A DNA stretch of 64,000 nt from an uncultured Candidatus Saccharibacteria bacterium (lineage in GTDB: Bacteria > Patescibacteriota > Minisyncoccia > Phycocordibacterales > CAYSCM01), in assembly GCA_964429815.1 (NCBI GenBank), contig CAYSCM010000001.1:164240-228239 (forward strand). The letters run 5' to 3'. Numbering within the stretch: position 1 is the first letter of the stretch; every line of letters begins with the position of its first letter. Below the pieces are notes generated by a model, which saw only the letters and a list, made by a program, of their open reading frames with translations, did not search any database and had not been told where the DNA came from. Made by a program: the position numbers and the translations under genes. Below are positions 5,210-5,247 of the stretch, piece after piece.

Positions 5210-5247
5210 ATACTCAAATTCTAAGCTATAGCTTAGAATTTGAGTAT
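5210..5247. repeat. 38-bp perfect palindrome, copy 1
   Basis: ATACTCAAATTCTAAGCTATAGCTTAGAATTTGAGTAT between convergent genes. The second copy is at 36497..36534. Confidence 0.8.

Follow-up and report, generated by a model that had tools for sequence, protein, structure and literature searches.

A perfect 38-bp palindrome shared by distant Patescibacteria, a possible low-copy REP/MITE-like element of 3' spacers

Among the extragenic palindromes of bacteria, the REP/BIME sequences of Enterobacteria and Pseudomonas are mobilised by RAYT/TnpA-REP, and in RNA the REP hairpins are 3'-protective or attenuating, for which malE-malF is the paradigm. Conserved hairpin motifs that lie between convergent genes of mycobacteria have reportedly been described as terminators (TRIT). 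We know of no described repeat family or mobile miniature element in CPR/Patescibacteria, whose genomes are tiny and streamlined, and a search of the published literature found no description of an element like the one analyzed here.

The present work concerns a palindrome that occurs twice in a 64-kb stretch of DNA (hereafter the window), which represents the replication-origin region of a Patescibacteria/CPR chromosome. The dnaN, dnaA (22664-24049), rnpA, yidC and jag genes are found at ~21-26 kb (window 21326-26000), and the cumulative GC skew reaches its minimum at ~25 kb. The window also encodes ruvABC, polA, tyrS, a PBP, PNPase, an Xer-type integrase and five tRNAs, and the best homologues of its proteins carry the names Candidatus Kaiserbacteria, Paceibacterota and Patescibacteria. 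To the right of the origin (25931-48895), ~23 kb of genes, including a T4SS-like cluster, lie nearly all on the minus strand and thus head-on to the inferred replication direction. The two palindromes with their neighbours, and the two further copies that were found in other genomes, are as follows.

4224-5174, plus strand: gene of 316 aa with a weak Lamin-tail-domain (LTD) match, convergent neighbour of copy 1
5210-5247, strandless: palindrome copy 1, ATACTCAAATTCTAAGCTATAGCTTAGAATTTGAGTAT, the C12/G27 variant, 19+19 nt, perfect and spacer-less
5269-5961, minus strand: SpoU-family RNA methyltransferase gene, convergent neighbour on the other side of copy 1
33444-36440, minus strand: lipase-like gene of 998 aa (LCAT-type lipase and MBG domain), starting downstream of copy 2
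36497-36534, strandless: palindrome copy 2, ATACTCAAATTATAAGCTATAGCTTATAATTTGAGTAT, the A12/T27 variant, 19+19 nt, perfect and spacer-less
36591-37493, minus strand: gene of 300 aa whose C-terminal half is Pro-rich; it ends upstream of copy 2 and is the last gene of the tight block from 42566 to 36591
VMFH01000016 (locus L001, Parcubacteria-group MAG), between recR (plus strand) and rplU (minus strand): copy ATACACAAATTC...GAATTTGTGTAT, the mirrored variant T5A/A34T
JACXTT010000264 (GCA_016853205.1; locus L004/L014), between a bPH_2-domain gene (plus strand) and a gene of 71 aa (minus strand), upstream of hisS: copy with asymmetric arms

Both window copies are exactly as the first-pass annotation had given them, including the paired substitution that preserves the symmetry. 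Their arms are 100% complementary over 19+19 nt, which leaves 38 bp with no spacer, and the copies differ solely at position 12 (C/A) and at its mirror position 27 (G/T). In 100 dinucleotide-preserving shuffles of the window there were 0 matches, so that none is expected by chance, and neither the half-sites (the 11-nt outer arm) nor the 14-bp core occurs again in the 64-kb window. If the second substitution had been independent of the first, its chance of falling on the mirror position with the complementary base would be ~1/(37x3) = 0.009 (~1 in 111), by our own arithmetic. A third symmetric variant, T5A/A34T, is present in another genome (L001), where the copy is embedded in a 44-bp perfect palindrome. 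The symmetry had been taken as an argument for selection. It is indeed non-random, and it recurs in the third variant, but selection is not the sole explanation, because hairpin-templated correction or symmetric master copies would give the same pattern. Hairpin-templated correction is a documented mutational route in quasi-palindromes. The mirrored substitutions show that the pairing of the arms matters, with template switching between the arms accounting for them as well as selection does, and copying from symmetric master copies would likewise yield a mirrored pattern without selection. In the L014 copy, the arms (...AAATTATAAGC vs ...AAATCGTAAGC) fail to match at two neighbouring positions, as if the symmetrising process had left an intermediate uncorrected.

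The element appears to be rare. The inner 20-mer, CAAATTNTAAGCTATAGCTTA, was scanned once in species-representative genomes (185,579 species) and once in metagenome contigs, neither of which includes the source genome. These two scans gave only two genuine further copies (L001 and L004), both in other Patescibacteria MAGs, and a single one of the 185,579 species representatives carries the element. Two other matches of the scans (L002 and L003) were rejected as chance half matches in AT-rich DNA. In IMG/VR, no match was obtained with the inner 20-mer or with a relaxed 28-position palindrome pattern; the 9 matches of the half-site were set aside as chance matches in AT-rich coding DNA. Neither blastn against GenBank phages and PLSDB plasmids nor Rfam connected the element with anything described: the former gave no meaningful match, and the latter no family, either at the gathering threshold or at E<=1, with only sub-threshold miRNA-precursor-type hairpins at 18-23 bits against cut-offs of ~49-120. 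In the source genome, the two copies are the total in the ~78 kb examined. The window, the sequence adjoining it (5.8 kb on the left, from L007, and 10 kb on the right, from L026) and the other CPR loci examined contain no further copy with <=10 mismatches and no solitary arm with <=4 mismatches. A DNA-uptake sequence was also considered and rejected, since solitary half-sites should then be frequent and none exist in the window.

Aligning all copies in both orientations revealed that conservation stops at the borders of the 38-mer and that the flanks are unrelated, which identifies the 38-mer itself as the unit. Between genomes the 38-mers are 35-36/38 identical, and 33/38 positions are invariant over the three genomes. 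The first-pass annotation had read the palindrome as a hairpin or a dimeric protein-binding site. Near-identity in distant genomes, at non-orthologous sites, widens this reading: it points to sequence-specific recognition or mobility, and not merely to a hairpin.

The sharp borders, together with the behaviour of the assemblies, raise the question of an artefact, namely a library linker or adapter, or an assembly mis-join. Mate-pair junctions are also 19+19 palindromes, and a 19+19 unit with sharp borders resembles transposase-end junction adapters. Moreover, the Logan contigs of the source (SRR12313482; L005, L006 and L007) end inside both perfect copies, ~30 nt in and from both sides, while being otherwise unbroken for 30, 18 and 60 kb. 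These breaks are probably of the kind that a perfect palindrome causes in a k=31 de Bruijn graph whenever its length exceeds k; should all perfect copies interrupt assemblies in this way, the source would hold ~2 of them in ~122 kb of its 502-kb genome. The imperfect L014 copy is read straight through by two Logan contigs (L015 and L016), and the genes to its left and right are ordered as in a relative (L012), which shows that this copy is real genomic DNA. A synthetic adapter would be invariant, whereas the element exists in four sequence variants, mirrored ones among them; it is present in assemblies of independent projects, and the plasmid and phage collections are without a match. An artefactual origin is thus extremely improbable. 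Since perfect copies break short-k assemblies, such elements can themselves fragment CPR MAGs.

By comparison of their protein sequences, the three carrier genomes are not close relatives. The lipase-like protein of the source has no homologue above 55% identity, and the source HisRS is not among the best 120 matches (about 50-55% identity or more) of the L014 HisRS. For RecR of L001, the best relative is 56% identical, and neither the source nor the L014 RecR is among the best 120 matches. The only gene shared between L014 and the window, encoding a T2SSE ATPase, is 36-51% identical. A relative of the L014 organism (L012/L013; HisRS 77% identical, same gene order) lacks the element in the orthologous spacer, which is 31 nt long (L012 9662-9692), so the element is not conserved at orthologous positions. 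A nucleotide-level empty site was sought through close relatives and none was found, the 31-nt spacer of L012 not being alignable. That spacer holds a GC-rich hairpin of its own, GGCGCCGC GGGA GCGGCGCC, without a T-tract. The loci of lipase homologues in relatives (L008-L011) were neither syntenic nor did they contain the element. SRR12313479 and SRR12313480, in which the L014 organism is present too, belong to the same run series as the SRR12313482 of the source; given this shared series, a single study or habitat is the probable origin of both carriers.

Placement is biased as well. All four copies are intergenic and follow a stop codon at a distance of 21-59 nt. Copy 1 is flanked by convergent genes, as first annotated, 35 nt past the stop of the LTD-like gene and 21 nt past that of the SpoU-family gene, and the same convergent arrangement holds for three of the four copies, with none in a divergent spacer. 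The four contexts in three genomes (LTD-like and SpoU, Pro-rich and lipase-like, recR and rplU, bPH_2 and 71-aa gene) share no function among the flanking genes. Intergenic DNA makes up ~9% of the bases of the window and convergent spacers ~19% of the intergenic bases, which gives a rough P of ~0.02 for at least three of four copies in convergent spacers, a thin statistic with n=4 copies. In the sequence examined, the element is therefore not the generic, abundant REP-like repeat without positional bias against which the first-pass annotation had weighed its reading: it is at low copy (2 in ~78 kb), it was matched in only two other genomes, and its positions are biased. A promoter reading was also rejected. 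Although TATAAT or TAGAAT is present in the arms, the match to a -35 box is poor (3/6) and a promoter scan lists nothing there; at three of the four sites, a promoter would in addition drive only antisense transcription into convergent genes.

As RNA or single-stranded DNA, either strand is predicted to form a hairpin in which a stem of 17 bp carries a UAUA loop. Over all copies the predicted folds range from -21 to -31 kcal/mol, with z from -3.8 to -9.4; copy 1 folds at -24.9/-25.4 kcal/mol (z ~-5.5), and copy 2 at -21.2 (gene strand) and -26.1 kcal/mol. Among the 17 stem pairs of the four copies, 14 are invariant and two show double-sided changes (U-A/A-U; C-G/A-U/G-U), while one cell is unpaired; with four copies, this covariation is thin. 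In the spacer of copy 1, the element is the sole strong hairpin. Elsewhere in the window, the minus-strand ksgA/RrnaAD coding sequence (43154-43933) contains in its 3' portion, at 43230-43260, a hairpin with a 14-bp stem (CGCGCGAAAAGCTC GAG GAGCTTTTCGCGCG).

Such a fold raises the possibility of a purely structural terminator or attenuator hairpin, inherited vertically or arisen locally, with neither mobility nor a sequence-specific partner. All copies are located past stop codons and the hairpin is stable on both strands; like bidirectional intrinsic terminators, the element places a symmetric hairpin between convergent genes, with the same fold on both transcripts. There is also a U-rich stretch after the L001 copy in the recR direction, and a T-run, GGTGTTTTTC, after copy 2 on the plus strand, where no gene reads in from that side. 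These are the only T-rich tails. A U-tract is missing in six of the eight transcript directions, and none exists in the gene direction at copy 1, copy 2 or the L014 copy; the original statement that neither window copy has a T-tract therefore holds in the gene direction and fails for the plus strand of copy 2. The canonical terminators of this genome (for example 12468-12492, 17620-17645 and 56612-56643) are GC-rich with T-tracts, whereas the element has a stem of 26% G+C, is AT-rich and lacks flanking A- and T-tracts. Two of them, at 17620-17645 and 56612-56643, are bidirectional intrinsic terminators (A-tract, GC-rich stem, T-tract), between ruvC and tyrS and between 56107-56607 and a NYN gene, respectively; they too are GC-rich, and in contrast to the element they are not repeated. 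The low G+C content and the usually missing U-tract bear out the earlier opinion that the palindromes are not simple intrinsic terminators, and termination as such by the element is doubtful. Furthermore, a hairpin of purely structural value does not explain the 35-36/38 identity at non-orthologous sites in distant genomes, nor does it account for the orthologous site of L012 without the element. A terminator or attenuator and nothing else is accordingly an explanation that we consider distinctly unlikely.

Copy 2 provides a different context. It lies in the T4SS-like operon, between the Pro-rich and the lipase-domain genes as originally noted, at 56 nt both from the stop of the 300-aa gene, which precedes it, and from the ATG of the 998-aa gene, which follows. 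The latter opens the next tight block, which runs on into PrgI, TraC-like and VirB4-like genes. The 150-nt gap that holds copy 2 is the sole sizeable one in this long minus-strand array with its PrgI, TraC-like, VirB4-like and T4SS-pilin genes, the spacings of the genes on either side of it being -4 to +5 nt, and this tight packing indicates that copy 2 marks the boundary between two gene blocks. A second hairpin, with an 8-bp stem (TCAATGCA-N10-TGCATTGA; 36471-36496, minus strand), abuts copy 2 on the side of the lipase-like gene, downstream in the transcript, and it appears in the predicted MFE fold of the whole spacer. It is absent beside the other copies and is context only, outside the repeat family. 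An oriT reading of copy 2 was rejected, as there is no relaxase and none of the other copies is in a T4SS context. A solitary TIGR or CRISPR repeat was considered as well, but neither an array nor an architecture of that type is present.

Given the constancy of its sequence, the palindrome could instead be a double-stranded DNA site for a conserved dimeric or tetrameric CPR protein, either a global regulator or a factor that organises the nucleoid or chromosome in the vicinity of the origin, with the sequence kept by protein contacts. A binding protein could equally account for the constancy of 33/38 positions over three distant genomes, and perfect dyad symmetry would be expected of such a site. 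The low copy number and the location of the window copies, within ~19 kb and ~12 kb of dnaA/oriC, recall the distribution of parS. Similarly to the element, parS and CIRCE have dyad symmetry, occur in few copies and are near-identical across distant bacteria, in their case across phyla. The differences are nevertheless considerable. The element measures 38 bp, as opposed to 16-27 bp for parS and CIRCE, and is long for a single dimer. It lies at the 3' ends of genes and not at promoters: three of the four copies are between convergent 3' ends, divergent promoter spacers hold none, and the neighbouring genes are functionally unrelated. The dimeric transcription-factor operator that had been proposed is disfavoured for this reason, as these three copies have nothing to regulate. 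In a protein site, positions that are not contacted should drift independently in each half, yet the two changes are exactly mirrored, a feature that parS and CIRCE do not share. The site of a conserved regulator should be widespread, and parS and CIRCE are phylum-wide, whereas the element is found in a handful of genomes, with one carrier in 185,579 species representatives, and is missing from the orthologous spacer of a related genome. The window has, in addition, a separate parS-like cluster at 63370-63417. On balance, a protein-binding site is an explanation that we regard as unlikely.

The parS-like cluster comprises four boxes (AGTTTCACGTGAAAAT, AGTTACACGTGAAAAT, TGTTACATGTGAAATG and TGTTTCGCGTGAAAAT) at 63370-63417 and 63583-63598, each with 3 mismatches from the parS consensus; over the whole window, 7 parS-like matches were counted vs 1.1 expected. 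It is located ~39 kb from dnaA, around the start of the ORF 63395-63808, and it may be a centromere-like or operator cluster. In the same part of the window, the 3' end of the tRNA-Gly gene (63015-63086) recurs in inverted orientation 24 nt downstream (GTTCGATTCTCCCTGGCC / GGTCAGGGAGAATCGAAC, 94% complementary; 63065-63124) and in direct orientation (CTCCCTGGCCGCACAA) ~150 nt downstream (63224-63239). These repeats look like the remains of integration or excision at a tRNA gene.

The perfection of the symmetry is also reminiscent of sites for recombinases or hairpin-resolving enzymes, be they Xer/dif-like, serine-recombinase or telomere-resolvase (protelomerase) targets. The targets of telomere resolvases (N15 telRL, Agrobacterium/Borrelia) are perfect, spacer-less, AT-rich palindromes in which changes are automatically mirrored, as expected of a replicated hairpin telomere, and the element shares these properties. 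An Xer-type integrase gene is present at 57982-58893, and the two copies bracket a 31-kb segment that contains the origin. However, the copies lie inside a continuous chromosome with unrelated flanks on either side of each, so that there is no hairpin turn-around; the window encodes no telomere resolvase or serine recombinase, and its Xer gene is of the housekeeping type and 21 kb away. A dif site should be single, asymmetric at its centre and located at the terminus, whereas the copies are fully symmetric and 12-19 kb from dnaA/oriC. Crossover at the centre between copy 1 and copy 2 would give C...T hybrids, and none was seen. A site of this kind is very improbable.

We tentatively favor, at something short of an even chance, another explanation: the palindrome is a miniature, low-copy REP/MITE-like element of Patescibacteria, which has spread horizontally, survives in 3' spacers and acts there as a punctuation or 3'-protection hairpin. 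This explanation takes into account the sharp borders, the unrelated flanks, the non-orthologous sites and the absence from an orthologous site, as well as the near-identity in distant, possibly co-resident genomes and the location in the least harmful spacers. The element, made of two abutted 19-bp arms, would be mobilised in trans, now or recently, and passed horizontally between unrelated CPR bacteria, and it would persist only where its insertion is harmless, that is, in spacers just past stop codons and above all between convergent genes. Transcripts of either strand would then receive an identical 17-bp stem with a UAUA loop, making the element a bidirectional transcript-end or punctuation hairpin. 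Such a hairpin may be an obstacle to 3'-to-5' exonucleases, of which the window encodes one, PNPase, and/or, assisted by a factor, may cause RNA polymerase to pause or terminate. In the T4SS-like array, the hairpin of copy 2 may uncouple the two tight gene blocks. The mirrored substitutions would arise from intrastrand pairing of the arms, by template switching or by selection for pairing.

On the side of the mobilising machinery, a Pfam scan of the window proteins gave no transposase, HUH/RAYT-like or other such gene, and neither ~350 kb of CPR loci nor IMG/VR contained a full-length element with the same ends that could be the parent. There is no target-site duplication outside the 38-mer, and a TA/AT duplication inside it would be indistinguishable from the palindrome. 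A bolder version of the mobile reading would be that the 38-mer is a minimal 'ends-only' mobile element, consisting of nothing but two abutted 19-bp recognition arms, which is moved in trans by an enzyme such as a transposase, an HUH or a hairpin-resolving enzyme among unrelated CPR bacteria that share a habitat, its symmetry being regenerated by a hairpin intermediate. We consider this version unlikely; if true, no smaller transposable unit would have been described, and the element would directly mark the exchange of DNA between episymbiotic ultra-small bacteria.

The unusual aspect of the element is that a perfect palindrome should be conserved across lineages of CPR bacteria. A conserved palindrome at non-orthologous 3' spacers of unrelated CPR bacteria would be evidence for horizontal traffic of a very small mobile unit or for a factor that recognises the hairpin. 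Should it merely be a hairpin that punctuates transcripts, it would be an ordinary feature with unusual sequence conservation.

Among described mobile and extragenic palindromes, two families invite comparison with the element. Similarly to MITEs and to abutted transposon ends (of the IS630-Tc1 type with TA duplication, or the 19-bp ends of the Tn5 type), it has sharp borders and terminal inverted repeats, the whole of it being two 19-bp terminal inverted repeats, and it occupies non-orthologous intergenic sites in unrelated hosts; its ends, A-TA-C...G-TA-T, are compatible with TA duplication. To our knowledge, its 38 bp are fewer than those of any described MITE, and a parent IS with these ends was looked for in the CPR loci and IMG/VR and not found. 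With REP/BIME it has in common that it is an extragenic palindrome of the 20-40-nt class, located past stop codons, between convergent genes or between genes of an operon, with compensatory changes in the stem. It differs from REPs in being perfect and spacer-less, in having no conserved unpaired GTAG-type head (its flanks are not conserved) and no paired or BIME-type arrangement, in showing no RAYT gene among the Pfam-scanned proteins of the window, and apparently in its number, with 2 copies in the ~78 kb examined as against dozens to hundreds of REPs per genome. REPs are, moreover, usually species-specific, while the element is common to mutually distant genomes. It would nonetheless appear to belong functionally with the extragenic palindromic repeats.
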